Under the pieces are notes generated by a model. The model ran no database searches. It was not told where the DNA came from and was given only the letters and a program-made list of their open reading frames with translations. A program made the translations under genes and the position numbers. Below, piece after piece: positions 2,329 to 33,837 of a stretch of 34,157 bases of DNA (the stretch's first letter is position 1; each line of letters begins with the position of its first letter). Source of the DNA: an uncultured Clostridia bacterium (GTDB lineage: Bacteria; Bacillota; Clostridia; Christensenellales; Pumilibacteraceae). The stretch lies in the NCBI GenBank assembly GCA_944376015.1, contig CALWBH010000074.1, positions 1 through 34,157 of the forward strand. The letters run 5' to 3'.

Positions 2329-3120
2329 TTATATCATCACCGGACGGTCGTTGCCGTGGTTTTTGCGGAATTCGGTAGGCGTTTGATTTTTGAATCTGAA
2401 AAAATTACGGTTGAACACGCGCAGGGAGTTGTATCCGCAGATGGACGCTATTTCGGAAATGGTCTTGTCCGTGGAAATAAGAAGGCTGGAGGCGTAGCTT
2501 ACGCGGCACTCGTTCAACAGCGCCGAAAAGTTGGTTTTGAATATGCGGTTGAAAAGTCCGGAGAAATAGCTGTAAGTGTACCCCATTATTTTGGCGATGT
2601 CGTGCATCGTGACGTCTTCCGAGTAATGGTTTTCTATAAATCCGAGTACTTCGTGCACGAAACTGCGGTGGGAACCGTTTTGCTGCCGCACGAATTCGGT
2701 GGAAGAATAAAAAGTGGCGAGTATGCGGTAAAGCGTGCTTTTGAGCGCGAACATATTGGACGGTTGAAGCAGTTCGTTTACCGTGTTTTCCGCGTCTTCC
2801 AGGCGAAAAACTGAATCGAGCGCGCTCATATTTTCCGTTTTGTTGTAAAAGTCGGAAACGTAGTCGGTGGAAAACACGCAGAGATAAGATCTTGAAAAGA
2901 TATGCGTGCGGTAAGAATGAGCTTCGTTGGGAAGTATTATCGCGCATTCGCCTTTGTTCAGGGTATATTCTTTACCTTCGACGGTTATTATCAATTCACC
3001 GCCGAGTACCGCGATAAATTCAAAGCTGTTGTGCATGTGCACGGGAAAATTAAGGTCGTTATCGCGTTGATGGTATATATAATGATTCTTGTTGGATCTT
3101 TCCTTTTCGTAAATTATCAT
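2329..3120 (-). CDS. AraC family transcriptional regulator (cupin sensor + HTH)
   Basis: N-terminal cupin-like HxH region (FPVHMHNSFEFIAVLGGEL) and a C-terminal AraC HTH (ISEIASICGYNSLRVFNRNFFRFKNQTPTEFR). The start is chosen at MIIYEK (ATG 3120) because AAGGGG lies just upstream; the track ORF runs to 3198. Confidence 0.85.
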   Translation of the reverse strand: MIIYEKERSNKNHYIYHQRDNDLNFPVHMHNSFEFIAVLGGELIITVEGKEYTLNKGECAIILPNEAHSYRTHIFSRSYLCVFSTDYVSDFYNKTENMSALDSVFRLEDAENTVNELLQPSNMFALKSTLYRILATFYSSTEFVRQQNGSHRSFVHEVLGFIENHYSEDVTMHDIAKIMGYTYSYFSGLFNRIFKTNFSALLNECRVSYASSLLISTDKTISEIASICGYNSLRVFNRNFFRFKNQTPTEFRKNHGNDRPVMI

Positions 3121-5822: not shown

Positions 5823-5988
5823 GTATTTACATTTTTTTGCGGTTGTGTTATTTGTTTTACGTAGAACGGGAAACGGCGGGATAATGTAATGTTCGCGGGC
5901 GCAAACTTAGATTGTCAAGTATCGGTTGTCGCCGCGGAAGCGGAGCGTTAGCCCATTGCCGATATCCCGAAAAAGTATAGGAGGAGAA

Positions 5989-10900: not shown

Positions 10901-12014
10901 AGCATATTCCGTAGCGGTAGGAAGCACGCTTCCGAAAGGGCTTACGCTTTCGGCAGACGGAATTTTGTCGGGTGTGCCCGAAGAAGAACTTAATAATTAT
11001 CGGTTTACGTTAGCTGCAACCTATGCCGATTATACGAAAACAGCAGATTTCATCATTAGCGTCATAAACAGCTCGGGTTCGATAATCTACGAAGCGGAAA
11101 CCGATCTCGGAAACGTTACGATAGGCGAGACCTGCGAAGTTTCCGTGGCGTATGCGCGTATATATAAACCCGACGCTACGCAGGAAGAAATAGACAGATA
11201 TCCCGCCGTGACGTATTCGCTCAAAGACGCAAGTCTTCTTCCCGAAGGTCTTACGCTCGGCAGCGACGGCAAAATAACGGGAACGCCGACAAAGGAATGC
11301 GAAAATTACTCGTTTACCGTGCTTGCGAGCGCGCTCGGCTACAAAGATACCGAACTGACGTTCACGATAGACGTTTACAACTCGATGGAATTTACTTCCA
11401 AAACGTTGCAAACGGGTAAATTCGGCGTCGGCTATCTCGACCGAGTGAACGTAGCGGATACGGTAGGAGACGTAACGTATACGCTCAAAGAAGGAAGCGA
11501 GCTTCCCGACGGATTGTCGCTTACCGCGGACGGATATATAGTAGGTACGCCCAAAGAAACGGTCACCGATCATAAATTCACCGTAGTGGCAAGCACTCCT
11601 TTCGCTGAAGCGCAGGAAGCGGAATACAGCATTTCGATAGGGCTTGCTTTCAACAGCATCAAGCTTCCGGACGGCGAATCGGGCAAGGAGTATTCGGCGA
11701 GAGTGGATACCGCTCAAGGCGCGGGCAACGTCACATACGCGCTTAAAGACGGCAGCAGCCTTCCCGAACGGCTTACGCTTTCCGCCGACGGCGTCATAAG
11801 CGGCACAACCAAAGCCGGCGTATATGAAGTGACGGTGATCGCAAGCGCCGACGGCAAAGTGTCCGACGAAATAACGCTTACGCTTTATATCGCCAACAAG
11901 CAGGGCGGTTGCGGCAGCTCCGTGGAAACGACGGGAGCGTTTATCTCCGCATTCCTTACCCTGGCGGCGATTGCGGCGGTACTCGTCGTACGCAAACTTA
12001 CGGTCAAAAAATAA
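7935..12014 (+). CDS. glycoside hydrolase family 3, domain-permuted, with four C-terminal Ig-like modules and a C-terminal TM anchor
   Basis: Signal peptide (...KFAFA/DD). The GH3 C-domain motifs come first (VTLLKNEGNALPL, SGEGFDLPRT, INPSGKTVDT), then the Fn3-like domain (PFGHGLSYTSF...VVQVYY). The GH3 N-domain follows (VKHFGINDQE, WGFNGCVVTDS). Then come 4 x LP.GL(T/S)L(S/T)ADG.I.G(T/V)P modules and a hydrophobic tail plus KK. The ATGA overlaps the upstream stop. Confidence 0.9.
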   Translation: MMMKKIMTKSRLIFVLLLTAAIIMSIVAISGVNKFAFADDVDTPQNYFDSDFDTRNEVLDDAKELNAEIYGEGVTLLKNEGNALPLGTGAKISIFGKNSVNMINGGSGAGSGGGGAVVSLTEALTSAGFSLNPSLINFYSNNSLSGSGRGTAPSNGNVTPGYNTGETPVSMYTEDVESTYAQYNDAAIVVISRISGEGFDLPRTMKWNGSTYGSWGTDATQLVPGARSVDDHYLQLDQNESDLIKYCGENFDKVIVLLNTGSQFETGFLDDAGHYGYHENTKAALWIGYPGSTGLNALAKILKGEINPSGKTVDTWARDFKADPVWKNHANNMMEGDASLKGNQYENLPASGGNGGGGYRNNYVTYKEGIYMGYRYYETRGYEEGFDTPYTGSLECGTETTEWDSWYDAHVVYPFGHGLSYTSFSQELISSEPADASTLGENDTVKFTVKVTNTGVVAGKDVVQVYYTAPYISGEVEKAHVVLGGFEKTKLLAPEESETVTVEIKVRDMASYDWNDDNTNDHKGYELDAGEYKVRLMRNAHDEIASVTYNITNDIKYSTDGATGNSVENRFDEVSEYIPSYSEYMSRTDFEGTFPTTDYKLNAPEWVINGLKEWDNRDVSKDEEQPYYTDEMPTMGVDSGLVLEDMIGVAYDNPKWDTFMDQLTKDQMFGIVQNGSYNSGQNIPALGITRVCNADGPAGFIYGAPSGSYSFWCCDTVLASTWNKQLAYEKGRSMGNEALWGNGTAGSRIPGWYAPAVNIHRSPFSGRNFEYYSEDGYLTGMMSANVVIGAQDKGLFCYVKHFGINDQETNRCGVLTWADEQTMREIYFKPFELCVKVGETLGIMSSLNRIGYTWTGGSYELLTELLRNEWGFNGCVVTDSYIGDGSGLSNIDQMVRAGGNLALGVGTLSYNKDSATAVTAVRNAVQGLLYAHANSMAMNELSYPTAPKPLASFDGKTLKVAVMGAAYSESVATALINDELYPDVPDSEIAYSVAVGSTLPKGLTLSADGILSGVPEEELNNYRFTLAATYADYTKTADFIISVINSSGSIIYEAETDLGNVTIGETCEVSVAYARIYKPDATQEEIDRYPAVTYSLKDASLLPEGLTLGSDGKITGTPTKECENYSFTVLASALGYKDTELTFTIDVYNSMEFTSKTLQTGKFGVGYLDRVNVADTVGDVTYTLKEGSELPDGLSLTADGYIVGTPKETVTDHKFTVVASTPFAEAQEAEYSISIGLAFNSIKLPDGESGKEYSARVDTAQGAGNVTYALKDGSSLPERLTLSADGVISGTTKAGVYEVTVIASADGKVSDEITLTLYIANKQGGCGSSVETTGAFISAFLTLAAIAAVLVVRKLTVKK
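10780..11890 (+). repeat. four tandem ~85-100-aa Ig-like (He_PIG / 'putative Ig'-type) modules inside the GH3 CDS
   Basis: Recurring peptide core: YSVAVGSTLPKGLTLSADGILSGVP, YSLKDASLLPEGLTLGSDGKITGTP, YTLKEGSELPDGLSLTADGYIVGTP, YALKDGSSLPERLTLSADGVISGTT. Module boundaries are approximate. Confidence 0.7.
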
Positions 12015-12029
12015 AGGAGAAACGAAAAG

Positions 12030-14987
12030 ATGGTCGGTAAACGTAAAGTACTTCGAGTGTGGGCAATAATTATCGGCGCGCTTCTCGGATTAATATTCGT
12101 TCTGACGATGATAATGACGCAGAACAAGTTTATCTACAATACGATAAACTCTATGCTCGGCGGCGAACGGCGGTATCTTAAAAGCGGAGATCCCGCGGAG
12201 TATCAGTATTATTCGACTGAATACAAATCTAAAAAAGACGTGCTCAACGCCGCGGCGGAGCTTAACGAGCGTATAAGCGGAGAAGGTATCGTGCTTCTGA
12301 AAAACGAAAACGATACTCTCCCGCTTGACGCGGGATCGAAAATCACCGTGTTCGGCAGAAACTCGGTCGACGCCGTACTCGGAGGGTCCGGTTCCAATCA
12401 GGGCGATACCTCCAATGCCGTTAACGATGTGAATTTGAGTCTGCAAAAAGCGGGTTTCTATTACAACGACAAGATAAGAGAGCATTATAAATCGGTAAAA
12501 CTGACGCGTCCGGAAGTAGCGATGGGTTCGGTATTGACGGGTTACCCGATATGCGAAGCGCCCCTGCCTTATCCGCAGACGGTGACCGACAGCTATGCGT
12601 CGTACGGTGACGCCGCGATAGTGTTCATATCCCGCGAGGGCGGCGAAGGCTTCGACCTTCCGCGCACTATGTTCTGGGACGGCAGCGGTTACAGAAACTG
12701 GAATCCGAAAGAGAAAATAGCGGTCAGCGGAGCGAGAAGCGTCGACGATCATTATCTGCAACTCGACAAGAACGAAACGGACATGATAAATGAAGCGTGC
12801 GCCAACTTCGACGAAGTCATACTCGTCGTAAACAGCGCTTCGCCCGTGGAACTCGGTTTTCTCGACGATCCTACGCATTACGCGTACAGCGACAAGATAA
12901 AAGCCGCTTTGTGGCTCGGACATCCCGGTTCGAACGGTATAGACGCTCTCGGTAAAGTGCTCAGCGGGGAAATAAACCCTTCGGGCAGAACGGTGGACAC
13001 TCTTGTACGCGACTTTAAAAAAGATCCCGCATGGGAGAATTTCGGCAATTATCTCTCCGAAAAAGGCAACCGTTATACTTTCGAAGGCGCGGACAGAAAC
13101 GCGTATTTCATAGAATACCGCGAAGGCATTTATGTGGGCTATCGTTATTGGGAGACCATGGCGGAGGAGCTTAATAGCAAAGACGGTTCGGGCGAGACGT
13201 GGTATAAAGACAACGTCGTTTACCCCTTCGGTTACGGTATGTCTTATTCGGATTTCGAATGGACGGTGAATCCCGTTACCCCCGTCGATACGCCGCTTGC
13301 CGAAGACGGCAGGATAGAAATAGAAGTTACGGTTAAAAACAACGGACCCTATGACGGTAAAGACGTCGTTCAGCTCTACTACACCGCGCCGTACACGCCC
13401 GGCGAAATAGAAAAAGCCCACGTCGTACTCGGCGATTTTGTCAAGACGGACGAACTCGTCGTGGGCGAAAGCAAAACTTACACGCTTTCCGTTGACGTAC
13501 GCGATATGGCTTCCTACGATTATGCGGGCAAAAACGATAACGACTACAAGGGTTACGAGCTTGACGCGGGCATATATACCGTCGGTATAATGAAGAACGC
13601 GCACGAGACGGTACAGACATTCGATTATCTGCTGTCCGACGACGTTTATTACGAGTACTCGGACGTTAACGAAAAGCAGAAGGTGGAAAACCTTTTCGAC
13701 GACGTGAGCGGACATATCGAAGAATATCTTTCCCGTGAGAACGCGTTTGCGAATTACGATTGTATCAAAGGCGCGGACAGTGCGGAAAACCGCGAAGTAA
13801 CCAACGAGTTTATAAAGAGCTGGACTTATGTGCTCGACGATGACGAAAACGATCCGTGGTACGCGAAAACCGCTCCCAATCAGAGTAAGAGCGAATTGTC
13901 TTATAAAAAAGCCGAGATCAAATTACACGACCTTATAGGCAAAGAATACGATAATCCGCTTTGGGACGAACTGCTCGATCAGCTTACCGTCGATCAGATG
14001 ATTCCCGTTATATCGACGGGCAACTACCGTACTTTGCAGATAGAAAATATCGGTAAGCCTATGACGATAGACTCCGACGGTCCCATGGGCTTCGCAAGCT
14101 ATATGGGCGACGGCGCCGTTTACGATACCTATTACTACGCTTCCGAAGCGGTACTCGGCGCGACGTGGAACACGGAGCTTGCGGAAGAATTCGGCGTAAT
14201 GATAGGCAACGAAAGTCTCGTGGGCAATCTGGACGGAGACGGCAGGACGTATTCCGGGTGGTACGCGCCCGCAATGAATTTGCACCGCAGTCAGTTCGGC
14301 GGACGCAACTTCGAGTATTACAGCGAAGACTCTCTTATATCGGGCAAAATGGCGGCTGCCGTCGTTAAAGGCGCGAAGAGCAAAGGCGTTTACACTTATG
14401 CCAAGCATTTCGCGCTCAACGATCAGGAGACTAAGCGCGACGAAACGGGATTGCTTACCTGGGCGAACGAGCAGGCGATGCGCGAGCTTTATTTCCGTCC
14501 TTTCGAAATATGCGTGAAAGAAGGTAAAACCACGGCGATGATGAGTTCGTTCAACCGTATAGGCGTCGAATGGGCGGGCGGAAGCTACAGATTGCTCACT
14601 ACCGTACTGCGCGACGAATGGGGATTCGAAGGCATGGTAATAACCGACTTCAATCTTAAAACGTATATGAACGTCGATCAGATGCTCAGAGCGGGCGGAG
14701 ACATAAATCTGAGTCCCAGCGGCAAACCTTCGTCTACGAAGACGGCAACCGATATTTCCGTGATGAGACGGGCGGTGAAAAACATACTTTTCACGGTCGC
14801 GAACAGTAACGCCATGAACGGCAGCGGTCCCAACGTTGTGTGGGGGTATGCGCTTCCTTATTGGGTGATATGGGTAATATTGGCGAACGTATTCCTGCTT
14901 TTACTCACCGGAACGCTTGTAACATTGGCATTCTTAAGCAATCGCAAATATAAAAAATCAATCGGAAAACAAATAACGGAGGAATAA
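12030..14987 (+). CDS. glycoside hydrolase family 3, domain-permuted paralogue with N- and C-terminal TM segments
   Basis: Same motif order as the preceding gene: IVLLKNENDTLPL, GGEGFDLPRT, INPSGRTVDT, PFGYGMSYSDF, AKHFALNDQE, WGFEGMVITDF. N-terminal signal-anchor and C-terminal helix (PYWVIWVILANVFLLLLTGTLVTLAFL) followed by NRKYKK. RBS AAGGAG. Confidence 0.9.
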   Translation: MVGKRKVLRVWAIIIGALLGLIFVLTMIMTQNKFIYNTINSMLGGERRYLKSGDPAEYQYYSTEYKSKKDVLNAAAELNERISGEGIVLLKNENDTLPLDAGSKITVFGRNSVDAVLGGSGSNQGDTSNAVNDVNLSLQKAGFYYNDKIREHYKSVKLTRPEVAMGSVLTGYPICEAPLPYPQTVTDSYASYGDAAIVFISREGGEGFDLPRTMFWDGSGYRNWNPKEKIAVSGARSVDDHYLQLDKNETDMINEACANFDEVILVVNSASPVELGFLDDPTHYAYSDKIKAALWLGHPGSNGIDALGKVLSGEINPSGRTVDTLVRDFKKDPAWENFGNYLSEKGNRYTFEGADRNAYFIEYREGIYVGYRYWETMAEELNSKDGSGETWYKDNVVYPFGYGMSYSDFEWTVNPVTPVDTPLAEDGRIEIEVTVKNNGPYDGKDVVQLYYTAPYTPGEIEKAHVVLGDFVKTDELVVGESKTYTLSVDVRDMASYDYAGKNDNDYKGYELDAGIYTVGIMKNAHETVQTFDYLLSDDVYYEYSDVNEKQKVENLFDDVSGHIEEYLSRENAFANYDCIKGADSAENREVTNEFIKSWTYVLDDDENDPWYAKTAPNQSKSELSYKKAEIKLHDLIGKEYDNPLWDELLDQLTVDQMIPVISTGNYRTLQIENIGKPMTIDSDGPMGFASYMGDGAVYDTYYYASEAVLGATWNTELAEEFGVMIGNESLVGNLDGDGRTYSGWYAPAMNLHRSQFGGRNFEYYSEDSLISGKMAAAVVKGAKSKGVYTYAKHFALNDQETKRDETGLLTWANEQAMRELYFRPFEICVKEGKTTAMMSSFNRIGVEWAGGSYRLLTTVLRDEWGFEGMVITDFNLKTYMNVDQMLRAGGDINLSPSGKPSSTKTATDISVMRRAVKNILFTVANSNAMNGSGPNVVWGYALPYWVIWVILANVFLLLLTGTLVTLAFLSNRKYKKSIGKQITEE

Positions 14988-23593: not shown

Positions 23594-23695
23594 GAAATTA
23601 CGCGCAGGGCAATGCGCAAAGCCCGTTATCGGGAGCGGATAACATAAGGATAGGTGAAAAATATCGAAAAATATACAAAGAATTTTATGACATAC

Positions 23696-23724
23696 TTGTT
23701 TTTGCCGCTTTAATTTGTTATAAT
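23696..23724 (+). promoter_or_regulatory. sigma-70-type promoter (extended -10) of the Type I R-M operon
   Basis: TTGTTT (23696-23701), 17-nt spacer ending TGT, TATAAT (23719-23724). Confidence 0.55.
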
Positions 23725-23777
23725 CGTATTAAGGGCGTTTTATCGTGAAAGCGCAAGCCCTTGTAAGGAGCTTAAAA

Positions 23778-25553
23778 ATGGAAGAACTTATGACGAAATA
23801 TCAGAAACAGACCACGGTCAACGTCAGGGAAAAAGCGGATTTGATCTGGTCGATCGCGGACAAGCTGCGCGGATTGTACAAACCGCACGAGTACGGCAAC
23901 GCGATATTGCCGCTTTGCGTCATAAAAAGATTTTCCGATACGCTCAAACCCACAAGGGAAGCGGTGCTTGCGAAGAACAAAGAGCTTGACGAAAGACAGA
24001 TAAAAGTCAAGGAAGTTTTCCTGCGCCGCGCGGCGAACGCGCTGTTTTACAACATAAGCCCGATGTCGTTCGAAGACCTGCTCAAAGACCCCGACAATGT
24101 GGACGTGAACCTGAAAAAGTATTTGCAGGGTTTTTCGATGAACGTCATCGACATAATAGCGAAATTCGATTTCGAGAACGAGATAGACAAAATGTCGAAC
24201 GGCAACGTGCTGTATGTCGTGCTTCGCGAGTTCTGCTCGCAGAAAGCGTATCTCGGCGCGGATAAAGTGTCGGCGCAGGATATGGGTTATATCTTCGAGG
24301 AGCTCGTCAGGAAATTCTCCGAAAGCTACAACGAAGAAGCGGGGGCGCATTTCACCGCCCGCGACATTATATATCTGATGACCGACCTGCTCATCGGCGA
24401 CGACGCGGAGGAGCTTAAACGCGACGGTATCACGAAAACGGTCTACGACATGACGATGGGCACTTCGCAAATGCTCGCGTGCATGACCGAGCGCCTTGAA
24501 AGCATAGACGAAAACGCCGTCATAACCTGTTACGGTCAGGAATTCAACCCGCAGACTTACGCCATTGCCAAAGCCGATATGCTGATAAAAGGCGGCAGCG
24601 CGGATAATATGAAACTGGGCGACACCCTTTCGGACGACGCGTTCAAAGGCTATCATTTCGATTACATAATTTCCAACCCGCCTTTCGGCATAGAGTGGAA
24701 GCGCGAGCAGAAAGCCGTCGAAAAGGAGCACGAGGAAGGCGAAGCGGGGCGGTTCGGCGCGGGACTTCCGCCTGTGTCCGACGGTCAGATGCTCTTTATG
24801 CTCAACGGCGTGAGCAAACTCAAAGAAAACGGCGGCAGAATGGCTATCATTCAGAACGGCTCTCCGCTGTTCTCGGGCGACGCGGGCAGCGGCCAGAGCA
24901 ATATCCGCGGGTACCTGCTCGAAAACGACTGGCTGGAAGCGATCGTCCAGCTTCCCAACGACTTGTTTTACAATACGGGCATAGCGACTTATGTGTGGCT
25001 CGTGTGCAAGGGCAAAAAGGAAAACAGACAAGGCAAAGTACAGCTTATCGACGCAAGCAAGTGTTTCGAAAAACGCCGTAAAAGCCTGGGCAACAAGCGC
25101 AACGAGCTTTCGGGCGAGTGCGTGCGCCTTATACTCCGCGCCTATCTCGACTTTACCGACGGCGTTTACGAAGAAAACGGAAAGACGGTGGAAAGCAAGG
25201 TTTTTTCAAACGAGTTTTTCAAGTACAGAAAAGTCACCGTCGAACGTCCTTTACTGGGCGATAACGGCGGCATAGTAATGAAAAAAGGCAAGCCCGTGCC
25301 CGATCCCAAACTGCGCGATACCGAAATTATCCCTTGGGGAACGGATACCGACGAATATATGCGCAAAAACGTCCTGCCTTTCGCCCCCGACGCATGGGTC
25401 GACGAATCCAAAACAAAGACGGGTTATGAAATACCGTTCACGCGGCAGTTTTACAAGTACGTCGCGCCCCGTCGCAGCGAGGATATTTTTGCCGAGCTTA
25501 AAACGCTCGAAACGGAAGAAACCGAAATAATGAAGGAGCTTTTCGGGGAATGA
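23778..25553 (+). CDS. hsdM: Type I restriction-modification system, DNA methyltransferase subunit M (N6-adenine)
   Basis: HsdM_N-like N-terminus (DLIWSIADKLRG...), NPPF motif IV (IISNPPFGIEW), and operon context with hsdS and hsdR. Start at ATG 23778, 7 nt after AAGGAG; the track ORF starts at GTG 23745. Confidence 0.9.
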   Translation: MEELMTKYQKQTTVNVREKADLIWSIADKLRGLYKPHEYGNAILPLCVIKRFSDTLKPTREAVLAKNKELDERQIKVKEVFLRRAANALFYNISPMSFEDLLKDPDNVDVNLKKYLQGFSMNVIDIIAKFDFENEIDKMSNGNVLYVVLREFCSQKAYLGADKVSAQDMGYIFEELVRKFSESYNEEAGAHFTARDIIYLMTDLLIGDDAEELKRDGITKTVYDMTMGTSQMLACMTERLESIDENAVITCYGQEFNPQTYAIAKADMLIKGGSADNMKLGDTLSDDAFKGYHFDYIISNPPFGIEWKREQKAVEKEHEEGEAGRFGAGLPPVSDGQMLFMLNGVSKLKENGGRMAIIQNGSPLFSGDAGSGQSNIRGYLLENDWLEAIVQLPNDLFYNTGIATYVWLVCKGKKENRQGKVQLIDASKCFEKRRKSLGNKRNELSGECVRLILRAYLDFTDGVYEENGKTVESKVFSNEFFKYRKVTVERPLLGDNGGIVMKKGKPVPDPKLRDTEIIPWGTDTDEYMRKNVLPFAPDAWVDESKTKTGYEIPFTRQFYKYVAPRRSEDIFAELKTLETEETEIMKELFGE

Positions 25554-25557
25554 ATGA
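25449..25557 (+). repeat. direct repeat copy 1 (authentic hsdM 3' end + RBS + ATGA junction)
   Basis: 109 bp. Positions 25473-25557 are identical to 26635-26719 (85 of 85). The first 24 bp carry 5 mismatches. Confidence 0.95.
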
Positions 25558-26587
25558 GAAGTTGAATAAAGATTCGGAAAAAACAGGGAATATCGTCATT
25601 TACCAATTAGACGACGGCGAAACTCAAATCGACGTTAAATTCGAAGACGAAACCGTGTGGCTTACGCAAGCACAACTTTGCGAACTTTATCAGACGAGCA
25701 AAGCCAATGTAAGCGAACATATAAAAAATATTTTGGACGAAAAGGAGTTGGATGAAAATTCAGTTGTTCGGAAATTCCGAACAACTGCTTCCGACGGCAA
25801 ATCATATTCCGTATTGCATTATAATCTCGATATGATAATTTCTCTCGGATATAGAGTCAAATCGAGAATAGCGACTAATTTTCGCCGTTGGGCAACGGAA
25901 CGATTGAAAGAATATATGATCAAGGGCTTTGCGCTTGACGATAAGCGTTTGAAAGAACTTGGCGGGGGCGATTATTGGAAAGAACTGTTAGATCGTATAC
26001 GCGATATTCGATCTTCGGAAAAAGTAATGTACAGACAGGTTCTTGACTTGTACGCCACAAGCGTTGACTACGACCCAAAAAGTAACGAATCGATTGCTTT
26101 TTTCAAAACGGTTCAGAATAAATTACATTATGCGGCGCACGGTCATACTGCGGCGGAAGTAATATATCAGCGGGCAGATTCCGACGCGCCTTTTATGGGA
26201 TTAACCTCTTTTAGCGGCGATATGCCCGCAATGCAGGACATAACTGTAGCAAAAAATTACCTAACCGAAAAAGAACTGAAAATTTTGAATAATCTTGTAT
26301 CAGGATATTTCGATTTCGCGGAAGTGCAGGCGATTAAACACAACCCTATGTATATGAGCGATTATGTTAAATGTCTTGACAATATTTTGTCATCTACCGG
26401 TGAAAAGGTATTGGAAGGAGCAGGGAACGTAAGTCATATTCAGGCTATAGAAAAAGCCAAAGCCGAGTATAAAAAATATCAGGTAAAAACATTGACGTCG
26501 GTAGAAAAGGAATATTTGCATACTATCAAGGGTTTGGAAAAACAAGCGAAGCTAAAAGCCAAGGACGGCGGGCGAGAAAAGTCGTAA
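25550..26587 (+). CDS. rhuM: RhuM family protein (function unknown; recurrent passenger of Type I R-M loci)
   Basis: IVIYQLDDGETQIDVKFEDETVWLTQAQLCELYQTSKANVSEHIKNI...SVVRKFRTTASDGKSY.V..YNLDMIISLGYRVKS..ATNFRRWATERLKEY matches my memory of the RhuM (Virulence_RhuM) N-terminal signature. The ATGA overlaps the hsdM stop. Confidence 0.8.
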   Translation: MNEKLNKDSEKTGNIVIYQLDDGETQIDVKFEDETVWLTQAQLCELYQTSKANVSEHIKNILDEKELDENSVVRKFRTTASDGKSYSVLHYNLDMIISLGYRVKSRIATNFRRWATERLKEYMIKGFALDDKRLKELGGGDYWKELLDRIRDIRSSEKVMYRQVLDLYATSVDYDPKSNESIAFFKTVQNKLHYAAHGHTAAEVIYQRADSDAPFMGLTSFSGDMPAMQDITVAKNYLTEKELKILNNLVSGYFDFAEVQAIKHNPMYMSDYVKCLDNILSSTGEKVLEGAGNVSHIQAIEKAKAEYKKYQVKTLTSVEKEYLHTIKGLEKQAKLKAKDGGREKS

Positions 26588-26610
26588 TAACGAAATTAAC
26601 GATTCGTCGG

Positions 26611-26715
26611 TTTTACGATTGCGTCGCGCCTCGCCGCAGCGAGGATATTTTTGCCGAGCTTAAAACGCTCGAAACGGAAGAAACCGAAATAATGAAGGAG
26701 CTTTTCGGGGAATGA
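26611..26715 (+). pseudogene. hsdM 3'-terminal remnant (34 codons + stop, no start)
   Basis: In frame it reads FYDCVAPRRSEDIFAELKTLETEETEIMKELFGE*, against authentic FYKYVAPRRSEDIFAELKTLETEETEIMKELFGE*. There is no upstream start, and the frame differs from rhuM. Confidence 0.85.
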
Positions 26716-26719
26716 ATGA
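26611..26719 (+). repeat. direct repeat copy 2 (displaced hsdM 3' end)
   Basis: See copy 1. It includes AAGGAG, the TGA and the overlapping ATG-AAT-GA that starts the next gene. Confidence 0.95.
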
Positions 26720-27701
26720 AGAGAAAAAATGTTTGCCTTTGCATTATAGGGGCGGGTTCAGTGATAGAAACAATATTGATAAACTGAACACAGAAATGCA
26801 AATAACGCAATTTAGTGAAAGGACTCGTGTAATTTTTATTAACAAATTACAGGAGATATTAAATAAAATTACAGATAATGTTTCAATGTATAGTGGAGAA
26901 GATTTATTCAAAAACCTTTTTAATTATATTTGTATTGAAGTATATAATCTTGAAATGGATATAAACTGTAATTTTCCGAAAAAATTTATTTATAAGTATG
27001 ACGAATATGACCCTTATTTGTCCAAAAAAACAGTTTTTTTCAATATTGTTGAAAATACCATAAAAAACGATTCTTATGATAAAGTTTTAACAATTATTGA
27101 AGCAATTTTACTATGGACAAAACAAAATATAATTTATAGAATGCCTCAGATAAAATATCTTGAAAATGGTCAAGTGAAACAAACTGAATTTGATGAGATG
27201 AAAATCTTCAATCAGGTTTTCGAAAAAGAATTTGTCGGGTATCGTTTTATTGGTAATATTATAACACCGATTACAGATGAAATAGAAGTTAGTGAAATTA
27301 AAATCGGATTGGAAGTTGAATTTAATGGTTGTCGGTCGCACATTCAAAAAGCTCTTGGTTTTTTATCCGACAGGGAAAACCCCGATTATAAAAACAGTAT
27401 TAAAGAGAGTATTAGTGCGGTTGAGTCTATTTGTACGATTATTGTAAATGAACCGAAAAAAACTCTTGGTGATGCTATAAAGGCATTTGAAAAAAAAGGT
27501 TTGAAAATTCATCCATCGCTTAAAAAGGCATTTTTGGCTTTATATGGGTATGCCTCGGATCAAGGCGGGATACGTCATTCGGAAAGCTTATTCGAAAGTA
27601 ATGTAACATTTGAAGAAGCAAAATATATGCTCGTCAGTTGTTGTGCTTTTGTGAATTATTTGATTGCGGAATATGGAAAAATTAACGGTGAATCAAAATG
27701 A
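26712..27701 (+). CDS. AbiJ-like abortive-infection-type protein (AbiJ-NTD-like N-terminus + HEPN-like C-terminal domain)
   Basis: N-terminal ..FSERTRV..NKLQEIL resembles AbiJ N-terminal domains. The C-terminal NSIKESISAVESIC..I......TLGDAIKAFEKKG.KIHPSLKKAFLALYGYASDQGGIRH resembles the conserved helical AbiJ/HEPN-type module. This is from memory and no HMM was run. The start is ambiguous: ATG 26712 is coupled through the repeat junction, and ATG 26796 (MQITQFSER) is the alternative. Confidence 0.55.
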   Translation: MNEEKKCLPLHYRGGFSDRNNIDKLNTEMQITQFSERTRVIFINKLQEILNKITDNVSMYSGEDLFKNLFNYICIEVYNLEMDINCNFPKKFIYKYDEYDPYLSKKTVFFNIVENTIKNDSYDKVLTIIEAILLWTKQNIIYRMPQIKYLENGQVKQTEFDEMKIFNQVFEKEFVGYRFIGNIITPITDEIEVSEIKIGLEVEFNGCRSHIQKALGFLSDRENPDYKNSIKESISAVESICTIIVNEPKKTLGDAIKAFEKKGLKIHPSLKKAFLALYGYASDQGGIRHSESLFESNVTFEEAKYMLVSCCAFVNYLIAEYGKINGESK

Positions 27702-28972
27702 AAAATAGCGGTATAGAATGGATAGGCGAAATCCCTGAAAATTGGGAAGTAGTTAAATTAAAAAATATTTCTATAAAAATTAAAAGCGGCGGAACGCCTG
27801 AATCTAGTAATGATAAATATTATAATGGAAATATTCCATGGACAGTTATTGCAGATATGTCTAATGCGGATACGGTTTTATGCACTAAAAAATGTATAAC
27901 AGAAGAAGCTATAAAAAGTAAAAATTTAGAAATATTCAAAAAAGGTGCTTTACTTTATGCTATTTATGCTTCTGTTGGTAAAGTTTCTGAACTTGGTATT
28001 GATTCTACTATAAATCAAGCAATATTAGCGATATGTTTGAACAATAATTTGGCATATAAACAATATGCAAAGTTAATATTGAAATGCTATGAGATTTATG
28101 TTATTGCTGAGTCAAACGGAAACACTCAATTTAATTTAAATGCAGAAAAAGTTGCAAACTTTTCACTTCCTTATCCCCCTATTGACGAGCAACAGAAGAT
28201 AGCGGATTATCTGGACAAGCGGTGCGAGAATATCGACGGGCTTGTTGAGTTGCAAAACCGTATGATCGAAAAATTAAAGGAATACAAACAATCGGTCATT
28301 ACGGAAGCGGTCACAAAAGGTCTTGACCCCGCCGCAAAAATGAAAAACAGCGGCGTGGAATGGATAGGCGAAATCCCCGAAAATTGGGAAGTAAAAAGAT
28401 TAAAGAATATTTGTAAAATTAGAACAGGTAGTACATTATCAAAATCAAGTAATGAAAATTATTATTCTGACGAAGGGTTATTATGGGTAAAGCCTGATAA
28501 TTTAAGTGCATTTAGCTCGATAGAAAAAACTGCAGAATATATAAACGAAAAAGGTCAACAGCAAATAATAGAATTTCCGCCTTATACAGTTTTTGTTTGT
28601 TGTATAGGAACAATAGGAAAGATTGGTTATTCAAAATATCCTGCGTATTGTAATCAACAAATAAACGGGTTGATTTTTTATGAATCCATTTTGAAAAGAT
28701 TTGGACTATATATGATTTTTGCACAAGAAGAGCAACATTGGATTTTTTCTAATGGCAATGTTATTAAAATAATTAATGCGGTAAATCAAGGGAAAATAAA
28801 TGTTCCGATTCCCCCTATTGACGAGCAACAGAAGATAGCGGATTATCTGGACGCGAAGTGCGCGGAGATAGACAGACTTATTGAGATTAAACAAAAGAAA
28901 ATAGAAAAATTACAGGACTATAAAAAATCTTTGATATACGAATGTGTAACGGGTAAGCGGGAAATAAGTTGA
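27698..28972 (+). CDS. hsdS: Type I restriction-modification system specificity subunit S (two TRDs)
   Basis: Duplicated architecture. MKNSG(I/V)EWIGEIPENWEV opens each half, and PIDEQQKIADYLD...I(D/E)..I......IEKL(K/Q).YK(Q/K)S is the central or distal conserved helix. The ATGA overlaps the upstream stop. Confidence 0.92.
   Translation: MKNSGIEWIGEIPENWEVVKLKNISIKIKSGGTPESSNDKYYNGNIPWTVIADMSNADTVLCTKKCITEEAIKSKNLEIFKKGALLYAIYASVGKVSELGIDSTINQAILAICLNNNLAYKQYAKLILKCYEIYVIAESNGNTQFNLNAEKVANFSLPYPPIDEQQKIADYLDKRCENIDGLVELQNRMIEKLKEYKQSVITEAVTKGLDPAAKMKNSGVEWIGEIPENWEVKRLKNICKIRTGSTLSKSSNENYYSDEGLLWVKPDNLSAFSSIEKTAEYINEKGQQQIIEFPPYTVFVCCIGTIGKIGYSKYPAYCNQQINGLIFYESILKRFGLYMIFAQEEQHWIFSNGNVIKIINAVNQGKINVPIPPIDEQQKIADYLDAKCAEIDRLIEIKQKKIEKLQDYKKSLIYECVTGKREIS
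28174..28216 (+). repeat. hsdS conserved-region repeat, copy 1
   Basis: TCCCCCTATTGACGAGCAACAGAAGATAGCGGATTATCTGGAC is identical to 28810-28852 (43 of 43). A second, imperfect pair is 27698-27751 versus 28340-28393 (54 nt, 5 mismatches). Confidence 0.95.
28810..28852 (+). repeat. hsdS conserved-region repeat, copy 2
   Basis: Identical to 28174-28216. Confidence 0.95.
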
Positions 28973-29628
28973 AAAACAGAACTAAAAAAACAATTATAAT
29001 TGCAGTGATACTGCTTTTAGTGACGGCGGGCATAATAACGGGGATATATTTTATACCCGACGAAAAATTGTCCGATATTTTGCTTGCGGTTTTTGCCGCG
29101 GTTTCGGGCGGCGCGCTTACGCTTGCCGGCGTTGCCTGGACGATAAAACGACAGGACGAACTAAAACGGGAAGAAGAACGTAAAAAAGCCAAACCGAATT
29201 TTACGTTCAGAATGGTAAACGATCCGAATTACAATGTAGCCGAAGAACTCGTTTGCTTTGACGATAATTTCGGAAAATTCAAGTGTCGCGCATCTGCTTT
29301 TATAGTAAATTCGGACGGTTCGACATTTTCACTCGAACGCATTTACCATGACAACAAGTGGTATGATTTTGTTTGCAATAAAATCGTATTGCCGAAAGCG
29401 CAGGTTTACATAGACTTCAATTTCAATTATTTTGAACCTTTGATACTTGAAGTAAAAGACGTTTTGGGCAACAAATATCATTATGAGTTAAAAGTTTTAA
29501 TCCTAATGAAAGAAAAAAATTTAGATCCGAAAAATCAAGTAGTAGCGCATACTTTGCGTGAAATTCGCGAACTTACGGCGGAAGAATATGCCGCGCTTAA
29601 AATAGACGACGACAAGGGGGAAGAATGA
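28969..29628 (+). CDS. hypothetical two-TM membrane protein with ~140-aa cytoplasmic beta-rich domain (no family recognised)
   Basis: The only long ORF between hsdS and hsdR. TTG start in a TTGA overlap with the hsdS stop, and its stop is in an ATGA overlap with the hsdR start. TM1 IIIAVILLLVTAGIITGIYFI, TM2 ILLAVFAAVSGGALTLAGVAWTI, followed by KRQDELKREEERKKAK (positive-inside). The start codon is uncertain because no ATG is available before the TM helices. Confidence 0.6.
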   Translation: MKNRTKKTIIIAVILLLVTAGIITGIYFIPDEKLSDILLAVFAAVSGGALTLAGVAWTIKRQDELKREEERKKAKPNFTFRMVNDPNYNVAEELVCFDDNFGKFKCRASAFIVNSDGSTFSLERIYHDNKWYDFVCNKIVLPKAQVYIDFNFNYFEPLILEVKDVLGNKYHYELKVLILMKEKNLDPKNQVVAHTLREIRELTAEEYAALKIDDDKGEE

Positions 29629-32600
29629 TAGACCGTAGCGAAAAACGCTTTGAAAGCGACATAGAAGAATATCTGCTGACCGAAGGCGGGTACACGAAAG
29701 CGGACTGGAAGTATTTTAACAAGCGGTATGCCCTGGATCTGACGCGCATGACGGCGTTTATAAGCAATACGCAGCCGAAAATATGGAAGGTGTTTTCGGA
29801 GCGGTACGGCGCGCAAGCGGAAGAGGCGTTATACAAGCGGTTTCAGTCCGAAGTCGGAGCGCGGGGGCTGATAAGCGTACTCCGCGACGGTTTGCCCGAC
29901 GTGTCTTTGCGCGGGGCGCGGATAAAGCTGGCATACTTCAAGCCTTCGTCCGCGCTGAACGACGAGTTGAACGAGCTTTACGAGAAAAACTTTCTCGATT
30001 GCGGACGGCAGTTTTATTACAGCGAGCAGAACAGGAAGTCGGTGGACATGGTGCTTATGCTCAACGGTATACCCGTTGTCGCGCTCGAACTCAAAAACCA
30101 ACAGACGGGGCAGAGCGTAAACGACGGCGTGCGGCAATGGCAGTACGACCGCGATCCGCGCGAGCTTGTTTTCAGGTTCGACAGCCGCGTGCTGGTATAT
30201 TTCGCGGTTGACCTTTACGAAGTCCGAATGGCTACCGAGCTGAAAGGGGAAAACACGTTTTTCATGCCGTTCAATCAGGGTTCGTGCGGCGCGGGTAACG
30301 TCGGCGGCGCGGGCAACCCGCCGAGCAACGACGGCTATGCCACCGAATATCTGTGGAAAAAATTTCTTTGCCGCGAAGGGTTGCTCGGACTTTTGCAGAA
30401 ATACATAAGCCGTCAGAAAGAAACGCAGTTCTACCTCGAAAATGGCAGAATGAAGGAGCGGACGAGCGAAAAAATTATTTTCCCGCGGTATCATCAATAT
30501 GACGTCGTGGAAAAAGCGATAAGCGACGTGCGCGACAACGGCACGGGCAGAAACTATCTGATACAGCACAGCGCGGGCAGCGGCAAGTCCAACTCCATTG
30601 CGTGGCTGGTGTATCGGCTTTCCACGCTTTACGACCGCGCCGACCGCGGTATATTCGATTCGGTAATAGTCGTTACCGACAGGCGGTTGCTGAATGCGCA
30701 ATTACAGGACACGATACAGAGTTTTACGCACAAGGCGGGGCAGATTCGCACCATAAAGGACAGCGATCCGAGCGGTGATCTCGCTCAGGCTATCGCCGAC
30801 GGCGTGCCTATCATCGTGTGTACGCTTTTCCGCTTCTCGGTCATTTTCAAAGCGGGCAAAGTGCTCAACATGAAGGGCAAAAGATTCGCCGTCGTCATCG
30901 ACGAAGCGCACTCGTCGCAGAACGGCGAAAGCGCGCAAAATCTGAAATCGGTGCTTGCGGACACTACGGGCGCGGAAGAAGAGTACGACGACGATTCGGA
31001 CGGGTTCGATACCCTCGACGAAGAAATGCTCAGACACGGCATGCACGACAATCAGTCGTTTTTCGCATTCACCGCTACGCCCAAACCCAAGACTTTGCAG
31101 AAGTTCGGGCAACGGCAGGCGGACGGGACTTACAGACCTTTCCATGTATACAGCATGAAACAGGCTATCGAAGAGGGGTTTATCCTCGACGTTCTCCGCT
31201 TTTACAGCACGATAAAAAACAGTTTCGAGATCGTCAACAATACTTCGGAAAACCCCGAGCTGCTCGAGCTTCCCACCATTAAGGCGATAAGGGATTTTCA
31301 GCGCGGGTATTCGGGCACTATCGAGATGAAGACCGCCGTTATCGTCGAGCAGTTCAGGCAGATAACGCTGTCTAAAATGATAAGCGGCGGCGTTTCCCAC
31401 GCAAAAGCCATGGTCGTCACGTCGTCGCGCAAAAGCGCCGTGCAGTATTATTTCGCGATACGCAGGTATATCCGCGAGCATGGTTATACCGACGTTATGC
31501 CGCTTGTAGCGTTCTCGGGAAAGGTGAACATCGACGGCGAAGAGTACACCGAACCCGCGCTCAACAAACTGTCGGGGGTCAATATCTCGGAAGAGCAGCT
31601 CAGGTATTACTTTGCGTCAACTATGTTCAATATGCTCATAGTCGCGGACAAGTACCAGACGGGTTTCGACGAACCGCAGCTCCATACCATGTTCGTCGAC
31701 AAAAAGCTGAAAGGCGTCAAAGCCGTGCAGACTTTGTCAAGGCTCAACCGTACTTGCAAAAAGTATGATAAAACCGATACATACGTTCTCGATTTCGTCA
31801 ATACCGCAGAGGATATTCAAAAGGCGTTCGAGCCGTTCTATACGGACACTTTGCTCGAAAGCGAGATAGACCCGAACAAGCTCTACGAGATGAAACGCGA
31901 TATCGAAGGATTCGGGTTTATCGACGCCGAATCCGTGGAGAAATTCGCGGCGGCTTACGACGAGATCAGCCGTACGGCGCAAAAGAAAAGCAGTCAGGGG
32001 CTGCTCACTTCCGTTATAAAACCGACGGTGGAGCGTTATAACGCGGCGGCGACGGATACGCGCGCGTCTTTCCGCAAACTGCTCAAAGGCTTTACTCGGT
32101 TCTACGCTTTCGTAACGCAGATCATACGCATTTTCGATAAACAGTTGCATAAATTCTATTTGTTTTGCGACTGGGCGCTCAGACAGCTGCCGAAAAATCC
32201 CGTGCTTAAATGGGAAATCGATATTTCGGTAATCAACAATACGCTTACCGAAACATTTAACGGCTCCGTCTCTCTCAGCGGCAAGGATAACGTTTTCAAA
32301 CCTACCGACGACCGCGGCGGAAAAGCCGTTAAGCAGACAGAACTGCTCAATGTTATAATCGACCATATCAACGACGCGTACGGCGATAATTTCACGGACG
32401 AGGGCAAAAATATGGTTCGTTCGATCTATGCGCGGATGACGAGCGATCAGAGCGGGAAACTCGTTAAAATGGTGCGCAACAGCGACGAAGAAATGTTCGT
32501 AAAAAGCATTTTTCCCGATTATTTCGCTCTGAAATCCGAAGAATGTTATAATTCGCAATCGGACGCTTATGCGTTGCTATTTCGAGACAGCGATTATTAC

Positions 32601-32654
32601 CGTATCGTAATGGAAGAAATGGCGCGGGCGATATACAGGAAATTCAAAAAATAA
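29625..32654 (+). CDS. hsdR: Type I restriction-modification system endonuclease/translocase subunit R
   Basis: N-terminal PD-(D/E)xK nuclease (VDMVLMLNGIPVVALELKNQ), helicase motif I (QHSAGSGKSNSIAW), DEAH box (VVIDEAHSSQ), motifs III-VI (FAFTATP...QTLSRLNRT). 1009 aa. Confidence 0.92.
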   Translation: MIDRSEKRFESDIEEYLLTEGGYTKADWKYFNKRYALDLTRMTAFISNTQPKIWKVFSERYGAQAEEALYKRFQSEVGARGLISVLRDGLPDVSLRGARIKLAYFKPSSALNDELNELYEKNFLDCGRQFYYSEQNRKSVDMVLMLNGIPVVALELKNQQTGQSVNDGVRQWQYDRDPRELVFRFDSRVLVYFAVDLYEVRMATELKGENTFFMPFNQGSCGAGNVGGAGNPPSNDGYATEYLWKKFLCREGLLGLLQKYISRQKETQFYLENGRMKERTSEKIIFPRYHQYDVVEKAISDVRDNGTGRNYLIQHSAGSGKSNSIAWLVYRLSTLYDRADRGIFDSVIVVTDRRLLNAQLQDTIQSFTHKAGQIRTIKDSDPSGDLAQAIADGVPIIVCTLFRFSVIFKAGKVLNMKGKRFAVVIDEAHSSQNGESAQNLKSVLADTTGAEEEYDDDSDGFDTLDEEMLRHGMHDNQSFFAFTATPKPKTLQKFGQRQADGTYRPFHVYSMKQAIEEGFILDVLRFYSTIKNSFEIVNNTSENPELLELPTIKAIRDFQRGYSGTIEMKTAVIVEQFRQITLSKMISGGVSHAKAMVVTSSRKSAVQYYFAIRRYIREHGYTDVMPLVAFSGKVNIDGEEYTEPALNKLSGVNISEEQLRYYFASTMFNMLIVADKYQTGFDEPQLHTMFVDKKLKGVKAVQTLSRLNRTCKKYDKTDTYVLDFVNTAEDIQKAFEPFYTDTLLESEIDPNKLYEMKRDIEGFGFIDAESVEKFAAAYDEISRTAQKKSSQGLLTSVIKPTVERYNAAATDTRASFRKLLKGFTRFYAFVTQIIRIFDKQLHKFYLFCDWALRQLPKNPVLKWEIDISVINNTLTETFNGSVSLSGKDNVFKPTDDRGGKAVKQTELLNVIIDHINDAYGDNFTDEGKNMVRSIYARMTSDQSGKLVKMVRNSDEEMFVKSIFPDYFALKSEECYNSQSDAYALLFRDSDYYRIVMEEMARAIYRKFKK

Positions 32655-32859: not shown

Positions 32860-33837
32860 TTACCTTTGATCGCTCACGGTGGCGTCGCTGTTGCTTGCTT
32901 GAAGCGCGGTAAGCGGGTCGTACGGCGCGCCCGATACCGTTCCCGCAAGCAGCGCGATGTCTACGGCGTTTTCGGGAATACCCCACGAATTGCCCGAAAA
33001 CACGAATACAGCCCGATCCACGACATATCCGCGCGTGTCGTACGCCACGTTATATATAATGTCGCCAGAAGAATCGGGGTTAAGGTATGCGGGTTGACGT
33101 AAAGAATAAAAGATATTGTTGCGCACGAGCAGGTCGGATATGCCGTTCTGCGTAACGAACGCGCGGTTTACCACCCATGTCGAAGAATCTCCCGATTGCG
33201 CGGGTCCGTAAATTTTGCAATTAACGATTTCGTCGCCGTTGCCGCCCACCTGTATGAATTCTACGGGGTAGGGCGCGTCGCTCGTCATCGTCAGTCCGTC
33301 TATCGTCACGTCGTCCGCGCTGAGCAGAAACGGCACGATCGGCGCTTCGAGCAGTATTTCCGCGCCTGCATTGCCCTTTATCGTCAGCCCGGGTATGTTT
33401 ATCCCGAGCTGCTGCGTCACAGGGTATGTGCCGCTCAGCACGTTTATCACACCGTTGGGAAGAGATGCGTCCAGCGCCTCCCTCAGGGTCTGAAACGGTG
33501 CCAACCGACTTCCGTCGCCGCCCGCCGCCGCGTCCGCCTGTACGTACAGATCGAACGGATCGGTCTGGACGGGACCCGTCGCGCCCGTCGGACCTGTGGG
33601 ACCTGTAGCGCCGTTACTTCCGTTCGCGCCTGTCGCTCCCGTCGCTCCCGTCGGACCGGTCGGACCCGTGCCGCCGCCCGAGCTTGACGGACCCGTCGGA
33701 CCCATGGGACCTGTTGCGCCCGTCGGACCGGGCGGACCCGTAGGACCGGGCGGACCGGGAATGCCCGCGGGACCCGTTACAAAACATAAATATCGGCAAG
33801 GCGGACAACCGCCGCACCCGTTGTTATCGAAAAACAT
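32860..33837 (-). CDS. collagen-like triple-helix-repeat protein with C-terminal right-handed beta-helix (DUF1565/pectin-lyase-fold-like) domain
   Basis: Cys-rich N-terminus (5 Cys in the first 18 aa), 23 G-X-Y triplets, then [31 protein letters not shown]...GLTIKG, a DUF1565-type beta-helix start. RBS GGAGGG lies 6 nt before the ATG. Confidence 0.85.
33571..33774 (-). repeat. GXY (mostly GPT/GAT) collagen-like triplet tract
   Basis: [30 protein letters not shown] [SSG] [36 protein letters not shown]. One triplet lacks Gly at position 1. The DNA is a degenerate 9-bp repeat (GGACCCGTCGG-like on the plus strand). Confidence 0.9.

Follow-up and report, generated by a model that had tools for sequence, protein, structure and literature searches.

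Several defence systems are known to be embedded in the operons of type I restriction-modification (R-M) systems, among them PrrC in EcoprrI, TgvAB in V. cholerae VPI-2 and the PDC candidates of Payne et al. 2024 ('guilt-by-embedding'). Genes embedded in R-M, bacteriophage exclusion (BREX) and similar operons now guide the discovery of immune systems, and how they enter, move and stack has hardly been addressed; the word 'recombination' does not occur in the text of Payne et al. Here we describe a 34,157-nt stretch of DNA from an uncultured Clostridia bacterium (contig CALWBH010000074.1 of assembly GCA_944376015.1; hereafter the window) in which rhuM and an AbiJ-like gene lie between hsdM and hsdS of a type I R-M operon, and in which the 3' end of hsdM is repeated behind rhuM. 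As in the embedded systems described before, the passengers of this locus and its relatives (rhuM, an AbiJ_NTD4 gene or a KAP NTPase) are placed between hsdM, hsdS and hsdR on the same strand and are translationally coupled. Whereas papers on such systems deal with what is embedded and why it may be useful, this locus holds a footprint of stacking and exchange, a duplicated host-gene end around a passenger. We think it likely that the duplicated end serves as a homology arm and ribosome-binding site (RBS) region through which embedded defence genes are exchanged and stacked without a dedicated recombinase. Three observations carry this reading: the repeat, a series of alleles of the locus, and mosaic breakpoints that fall at the repeat.

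A duplicated hsdM end and its alleles

A repeat search paired the last part of hsdM (copy A) with a segment just behind rhuM (copy B) over 115 nt, at 94% identity and a spacing of 1162 (Table 1), and self-blastn of the repeat returned 110 nt at 95.5% identity (E = 5.6e-46). Base by base, the two share a 109-nt core (25449-25557 and 26611-26719) with mismatches at 25455, 25457, 25459, 25469 and 25472 only; the 3' 85 nt (25473-25557 and 26635-26719) are identical, and the copies part directly after ...GGGGAATGAATGA. The original prediction, made from the letters of this stretch, had proposed a 109-bp direct repeat at these positions, with 85 of 85 bases identical in the 3' part and five mismatches in the first 24 bp, and all of this was borne out.

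Copy A holds an AAGGAG RBS, the hsdM stop TGA (25551-25553), the rhuM ATG at 25550, with which the stop overlaps, and the first 8 nt of rhuM. Copy B, which begins 17-23 nt past the rhuM stop (26585-26587), likewise includes the AAGGAG box, the ATG (26712) and the first 8 nt of the AbiJ-like gene. Both passengers begin with ATGAATGA (MNE...), in agreement with the prediction that they share a start and a coupling signal. Copy B is in the HsdM frame, ending in ...RFYDCVAPRRSEDIFAELKTLETEETEIMKELFGE and the stop, and has no start codon that would give an open reading frame (ORF) of at least 20 aa, as expected of the in-frame, start-less hsdM C-terminal fragment for which it had been taken. To its left, hsdM homology fades at about 26602-26610, where at most ~6 further nt are hsdM-like (4/6 matching) and the rhuM stop is just 17 nt away. 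A longer, decayed hsdM fragment on this side was sought by inspection, and at most ~6 extra nt were seen.

To place the repeat among relatives, we compared 177 hsd loci (numbered with the prefix L), 40 of which have slot-1 cargo, meaning more than 600 nt between hsdM and hsdS. Scanning GTDB species genomes and JGI metagenomes with HsdM yielded relatives of at most 66% identity and no alleles; the close alleles came from a protein-collection search (HsdM 97-100% identical to that of the window) followed by contig look-ups. HsdM-family relatives are typically arranged as hsdM-[0-4 kb]-hsdS-[0-5 kb]-hsdR, with rhuM found in either gap. The orthologous loci adjoin the same sufBD/ABC genes and show six slot-1 states directly after hsdM. 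Four of these states come with a single copy of the repeat: a 313-aa AbiJ gene (L165, hsdM-AbiJ-hsdS-207aa-hsdR), a 215-aa gene (L168, hsdM-215aa-hsdS), a KAP NTPase (L164, L167 and L179, hsdM-KAP NTPase-hsdS) and a 36-aa ORF (L162, hsdM-36aa-hsdS-hsdR). The other two carry the duplicated hsdM end: L161 (NCBI GCA_964309515.1) reads hsdM-rhuM-215aa-hsdS-226aa-hsdR, and L169 (ENA ERZ28582641) reads hsdM-rhuM-AbiJ(313)-hsdS-220aa-hsdR. A further locus, L166 (hsdM-KAP NTPase-hsdS-393aa-hsdR), has an HsdM of 86% identity and a different left flank. The rhuM-less and differently loaded alleles that the original prediction had suggested looking for thus exist, L165 with a direct hsdM-AbiJ junction among them, and the duplication is not common to all related loci.

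The passengers are defence candidates by profile: RhuM matches PDC-S05, the AbiJ-like protein PDC-S32 and the KAP NTPases PADLOC PDC-S20. Three unrelated families, RhuM, AbiJ-like and KAP NTPase, share the MNE start ATGAATGA(A/G) (25550 and 26712 in the window, 3773 in L164, 3864 in L167), and these opening codons look like part of the junction and not of the passenger. The 36-aa ORF of L162 (3943-4053) derives from the AbiJ-like gene by an in-frame deletion that left its first 12 and last 24 codons, joined at a 2-nt TA microhomology, and its stop/start overlaps with hsdM and hsdS are kept on both sides.

What recurs in the rhuM-bearing alleles is a module of 1,162 bp, comprising the rhuM ORF, a 14-17-nt spacer and the ~110-nt copy of the hsdM 3' end. 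Three different genes follow it: the AbiJ-like gene of the window, the 215-aa gene of L161 and the 313-aa AbiJ variant of L169. At the nucleotide level the rhuM of the window is 99.4% identical to that of L161 and 96.0% to that of L169, and the spacer has one substitution in L161 and a diverged version in L169. The 3' tip of copy B fits the junction of whichever gene follows, being of the 215-aa type in L161 (GGGAAATGAAGGAAGGAG..., as in L168) and of the AbiJ type in the window and L169. L169 is equivalent to L165 with exactly one unit added: both copies of L169 align with L165 3662-3770, and on either side of the unit the two loci are 97.6% and 97.0% identical. GAGGAT is found in both copies of the window and of L161, and GAAGAT in both copies of L169; this sharing, at one or two sites, hints at co-transfer or gene conversion. 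No exact match to the module was found in IMG/VR.

The same left boundary in three alleles indicates that the duplication came with the rhuM module by descent and was not made as a scar in this genome. The original prediction, in which a rhuM module had been inserted at the hsdM end by homologous recombination, is supported with refinements: a module with its arm exists and recombination has occurred at the repeat, but the scar would not date from this genome and the founding join would have been illegitimate.

Two further features of these sequences were observed. The rhuM gene is itself mosaic: of the 42 differences between the window (25550-26587) and L169 (4315-5355), 38 fall in the 3' half of the aligned sequence, and the final few of these are in the spacer just past the stop. 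In copy B of the window, a T at 26631 (C in copy A, L161 and L169) and a C at 26634 (T in copy A) create, within 26629-26653, a perfect 6-bp hairpin CCTCGC-CGCA-GCGAGG followed by ATATTTTTG, which is terminator-like and absent from copy A, L161 and L169; terminator-like matches across the region were not above shuffled expectation.

The ancestry of the window is mosaic. Its core flank (21.8-23.5 kb, sufBD/ABC) is closer to L165, L164, L168 and L169 than to L161, and despite this its hsdM is 98.0% identical to that of L161. Window positions 23676-26725 are 97.8% identical to L161 9893-12949, and the similarity stops at the tip of copy B. L165-like sequence follows in the second half of the AbiJ gene, at the start and in the 3' half of hsdS, in the 219-aa gene and over the first ~700 nt of hsdR, where sliding mismatch counts group nt ~1-700 with L165, L169 and L164. 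From hsdR nt 800 to 2600 (about 30.4-32.2 kb) the window is again near-identical to L161 (9 mismatches in 1800 nt), and the last ~450 nt (nt 2600-3030) are L162-like. The conserved blocks of the mosaic are hsdM through the stop/start overlap ATGAATGA, three hsdS blocks and hsdR from position -11. On these patterns, the most parsimonious event would be an L161-like operon whose middle was replaced by an AbiJ-type middle while rhuM was kept, and the simplest reading puts the left crossover in copy B and the right one in hsdR near nt 700-800. A fresh insertion of rhuM in the window would be less parsimonious, and the product of a replaced middle would also result if an AbiJ-type operon had taken up two L161-like patches separately.

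A further breakpoint is seen in L169, the hsdM of which is L165-like over nt 1-1554 and shares L161 states at 7 of 8 sites in its last ~220 nt (max-chi2 breakpoint permutation, p = 0.0008). Such a switch is what a double crossover bringing in copy A, rhuM and copy B would leave. The proposal that the hsdM terminus is a docking site for swapping passengers accords with the six slot-1 states and with breakpoints that coincide with the repeat.

Proposed route of exchange and competing accounts

In the route that we favour, the duplication would have been founded once, when a fragment starting inside the hsdM 3' end was joined illegitimately just past a resident rhuM and its other end was settled by homologous recombination further right, as in homology-facilitated illegitimate recombination. 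We infer this founding join from its product; it goes beyond plain homologous recombination and needs one illegitimate or unequal join. The ancestor was likely hsdM-rhuM-hsdS, an arrangement seen in L171-174, in the Treponema loci and in the Aliarcobacter plasmid pCNAC48. Once formed, the module could be exchanged by general recombination in either direction. With hsdM as the left and copy B as the right homology, a RecA-type double crossover would place rhuM ahead of the slot-1 gene of a recipient. Conversely, the hsdM end of a rhuM-less donor could pair with copy B and exchange all that lies downstream without loss of rhuM, and the mosaic of the window looks like this case. In each event, copy B would let the displaced gene keep its own RBS and start context, from which that gene would presumably be expressed. 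As direct copies, A and B would also be a substrate for a precise, RecA-dependent deletion of rhuM that restores an L165-type hsdM-AbiJ junction, and we regard such excision as a sound prediction.

Several points weigh against this route or narrow its reach. The alleles compared gave no direct sign of excision or of a circular intermediate. All alleles come from different samples or lineages, 2-10% apart, so that the series can be read as gain or as loss. The founding event was not observed, and no pre-duplication ancestor of the window rhuM was among the matches listed. Breakpoints at the edge of a homology would be expected under any homologous recombination, so that an arm function is inseparable from the passive presence of the repeat. 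The variant-sharing arguments within the 110-nt repeat rest on very few sites, too few for proof of gene conversion within a genome. Finally, the hsdM-3' repeat was missing wherever else hsdM and hsdS are more than 600 nt apart (37 loci), and in the one hsdM-rhuM plasmid inspected, Aliarcobacter pCNAC48, a small ORF follows rhuM with no repeat. The duplication is therefore no general mechanism of embedding. Confined to the window, L161 and L169 among the 177 loci, it is a lineage-specific structure.

Loss alone might account for part of the allele series. Here an ancestral hsdM-rhuM-copy B-cargo arrangement would have lost rhuM repeatedly by recombination between copies A and B, and the rhuM-less alleles would be the excision products. 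Direct repeats of ~110 nt at a distance of 1.16 kb are a classic deletion substrate, and L165 and L168 are single-copy alleles with the same downstream genes as L169 and L161. Yet L165 differs from L169 upstream of the repeat, at hsdM nt 1602, 1662 and 1665, and is therefore no simple A x B deletion product of it; the KAP-NTPase alleles require gene replacement anyway, and the rhuM-plus alleles are not monophyletic in hsdM. We consider it rather unlikely that loss was the only process.

The repeat could also be a passive scar, left as a neutral hsdM fragment when one illegitimate or unequal event stacked rhuM, with later diversity arising through homologous recombination in the long bodies of hsdM and hsdR. 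Its rarity (3 of 40 cargo-bearing loci, all of one lineage), the decay of the 5' edge of copy B and of the spacer, and the fact that no structure or motif was found in copy B would suit such a scar. It is harder to reconcile with the L161-like tract of the window, which breaks off precisely at the copy B tip instead of within the hsdM body, with copy B tips that each carry the junction type of their downstream gene, with the identity of the 85-nt 3' part between copies A and B in the window genome, and with the presence of the same module ahead of three different downstream genes. These patterns make an inert fragment an unlikely explanation.

A site-specific cassette system, integron-like or att-like, in which the repeat is the site of a dedicated recombinase, would explain the cassette-like stacking and the fact that every unit ends in the same sequence; a serine recombinase lies beyond hsdR in L162, and the element of L171-174 carries a serine recombinase and a Rep gene. 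Against this, no recombinase domain was found among the larger window ORFs, which were those scanned with Pfam. The repeat is plain hsdM coding sequence that lacks an attC-like fold (folding z about 0, ranging from -0.5 to +1.4) and matched no Rfam family. Its left boundary is ragged, and the other breakpoints of the locus fall inside genes, as homologous recombination would give. A dedicated recombinase is thus highly improbable here.

An artefact of assembly, in which a contig join was duplicated or collapsed, might be suspected since the window is apparently metagenome-assembled and repeats longer than k are error-prone there, but it is excluded: the copies differ at five positions and have unique flanks, rhuM, spacer and hsdM-3' fragment recur with the same left edge in the independent assemblies L161 and L169, and the architecture is found in an NCBI assembly, an ENA assembly (and three similar places) and Logan contigs of five samples, including a 1.1-kb contig (L170) whose two ends break inside repeat copies, as a true repeat would.

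The route by exchange through the duplicated hsdM end can be set beside a much broader proposal, which we find doubtful, that such a duplication is the hallmark of a recombinase-free, integron-like platform on which defence genes carry a private copy of the junction (RBS, stop/start overlap and ~100 nt of homology). Were this so, the passengers would be self-sufficient cassettes that could be stacked in order, exchanged and precisely excised by general recombination, type I R-M operons would serve as racks that can be programmed with defence genes, and two other structures in our comparison would be further instances. The first is a mirror image found in L038 and L068 (Treponema metagenome-assembled genomes), in which the RBS and the first ~36 nt of hsdS are duplicated 1.15 kb apart. 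The repeated hsdS start (L038 11812-13336, L068 4447-5650) brackets a complete YhcG/DUF1016 gene (PDC-S02). Directly upstream of it, L038 also has a 107-aa DUF1016_N fragment, older and truncated; L068 is known from its repeat coordinates alone. The L038 duplication is topologically identical to the repeat of the window and also counts in favour of the route by exchange. The second is the short junction repeat of L171, which among the loci compared comes nearest to a pre-duplication ancestor (RhuM 88% identical at the amino acid level) but is a different locus, hsdM-rhuM-hsdS, and has no long repeat. In L171-174, the hsdM-to-rhuM and rhuM-to-hsdS junctions share AGGAGAT.T...GAGAATGAAAGA at 20 of 24 positions, and both rhuM and hsdS start with MKD. 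A test for short junction repeats over the cargo sites singled out these loci only, and weakly (24 nt, p about 0.012). The locus (7960-9060) is organized as helix-turn-helix gene-hsdM-rhuM-hsdS and lies beside the serine recombinase and Rep genes mentioned above.

Gene content of the window

The larger ORFs of the window were scanned against Pfam and PADLOC profiles. A complete type I R-M system lies at one locus, with the Pfam families for hsdM, hsdS and hsdR all matched, and is laid out on the + strand as hsdM-[slot 1]-hsdS-[slot 2]-hsdR (Table 1). Gene callers place the start of hsdM at 23778 (591 aa) or 23790 (587 aa). RhuM matched PF13310 at 2.4e-107, with 248 of 252 model positions covered, and PADLOC PDC-S05 at 6.6e-163; the RhuM of the window is a candidate defence protein, and a different PDC-S05 representative, a RhuM-domain protein, protects E. 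coli from T7, T5 and T4 (PMC12881386). The AbiJ-like protein matched AbiJ_NTD4 at 2.1e-13 (Pfam) and PDC-S32 at 2.7e-82 (PADLOC). The GC content is ~0.54 in hsdM and hsdR, 0.41 in rhuM and ~0.30 in the AbiJ-like gene and hsdS, and these steps mark the rhuM and AbiJ-like passengers as foreign.

Table 1. Features of the hsd operon, with positions in the 34,157-nt window.
Feature	Position	Strand	Basis
hsdM, type I R-M methyltransferase	23745-25553	+	Pfam N6_Mtase 3e-54, HsdM_N 3e-22
Repeat copy A, last ~110 nt of hsdM	25443-25557	+	Repeat search, self-blastn, base check
rhuM, 345 aa, embedded in the hsd operon	25550-26587	+	Pfam Virulence_RhuM PF13310, PADLOC PDC-S05
Spacer native to the rhuM module	26588-26604	+	3' end is the left (putatively illegitimate) boundary of copy B
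Repeat copy B, hsdM C-terminal fragment	26605-26719	+	In HsdM frame, start-less
AbiJ_NTD4-domain gene, 329 aa, second embedded passenger	26712-27701	+	Pfam AbiJ_NTD4, PADLOC PDC-S32
hsdS, variable target-recognition domains	27698-28972	+	Pfam Methylase_S
Predicted membrane protein, 219 aa, slot 2 (between hsdS and hsdR)	28969-29628	+	No Pfam or PADLOC match; related to the 207-aa protein of L165
hsdR, mosaic	29625-32654	+	Pfam HSDR_N, ResIII, SWI2_SNF2

Other genes of the operon vary between alleles as well. The AbiJ_NTD4 proteins of the window and of L165 and L169 are 64% identical overall, with a highly divergent N-terminal part (~165 aa) and a C-terminal part (~160 aa) that is ~97% identical; at the DNA level, similarity to L165 (3763-4704) starts abruptly at 27208. 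This pattern resembles an exchangeable sensor domain joined to a conserved effector half. In hsdS, the 5' start, a central region and a 3' region are conserved and common to all alleles, and the gene has internal half-repeats, D1 and D3. The hsdS of L161 (13615-14923) is called as two ORFs of 74 aa and 348 aa, with the hsdS 5' start at the head of the 74-aa ORF, and may be a frameshifted or interrupted gene or reflect a sequencing error.

Slot 2 holds a 207-220-aa protein, an unrelated 226-aa protein, a 393-aa protein or nothing (window 28969-29628; L161 14923-15603; L166 5389-6570; L162 5354-5391). The 219-aa protein of the window is 96% identical to the 207-aa protein of L165 and unrelated to the 226-aa protein of L161 and L164; the N-terminus of the 219- and 220-aa versions is hydrophobic, like a membrane anchor. 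None of the slot-2 genes had a convincing match in Pfam or PADLOC, and the 219-aa protein had no match in either.

The remainder of the window is ordinary chromosome, with GH3 glycosidases, Fe-ADH, malic enzyme, AraC regulators, SufBD/ABC and tRNA-Gly. Very large Big_2/He_PIG/GH3 surface glycosidases are encoded upstream (5926-14987, + strand), and a collagen-triple-helix repeat protein downstream of hsdR (32860-33837, - strand). Variation also extends to the right flank of the hsd locus, where L161, unlike the window, has a GH3 gene past hsdR.

Comparison with described systems

The closest described process for the origin of the duplication is homology-facilitated illegitimate recombination, in which one end of the incoming DNA is joined by homology and the other illegitimately (PMC3240628). 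Copy B is similar in having a ragged left edge 14-17 nt past the rhuM stop and unbroken homology rightward, and the hsdS-5' duplication of L038 has the same layout. In contrast to the documented cases, the event at this locus can be read from its product only, in which no donor, recipient or microhomology is identifiable.

For later exchange, the lpl cluster of S. aureus offers a parallel. There, a conserved '3' ORF - intergenic - 5' ORF' junction is reported to be the recombination unit (PMC2568036). Both loci exchange variable gene bodies through short, conserved junctions between a gene end and the next start; unlike in the lpl cluster, the variable bodies here are unrelated defence genes rather than paralogues, and the junction has been copied into the passenger module. 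By analogy, conserved genes on either side also allow capsule and O-antigen loci to be swapped.

Type I loci are also diversified by phase-variable hsdS shufflons, which use inverted repeats and an invertase (PMC7672463, PMC9881135). The window shares with them diversification by recombination at a repeated hsd sequence, but its repeats are direct, it has neither an invertase nor silent hsdS copies, and the changes are gain, loss and swapping between strains rather than reversible switching. Inverted repeats in the window are weak (at most 30 nt and at most 81% complementary), and no invertase was found among the scanned ORFs. Integron cassettes resemble this locus in that passengers without promoters follow one another in a single orientation, every unit closing with a copy of the docking sequence. 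Unlike integrons, the locus has no integrase among the window ORFs scanned, no attC or attI and no structured site, and exchange resembles general homologous recombination.

In the literature searched, we found no description of a captured host-gene end as a footprint of this kind. What probably sets the locus apart from the systems above is that a passenger has captured the 3' end of its host gene, and that this copy acts as a crossover point in the allele series. The locus is a natural series of alleles with readable breakpoints, and a host-gene end borne by the passenger would provide homology for recombinase-free insertion, retention and loss together with an intact translation start for the next gene, which suggests a design rule for stackable defence cassettes. 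For annotation, start-less hsdM fragments behind embedded genes would be meaningful rather than noise.

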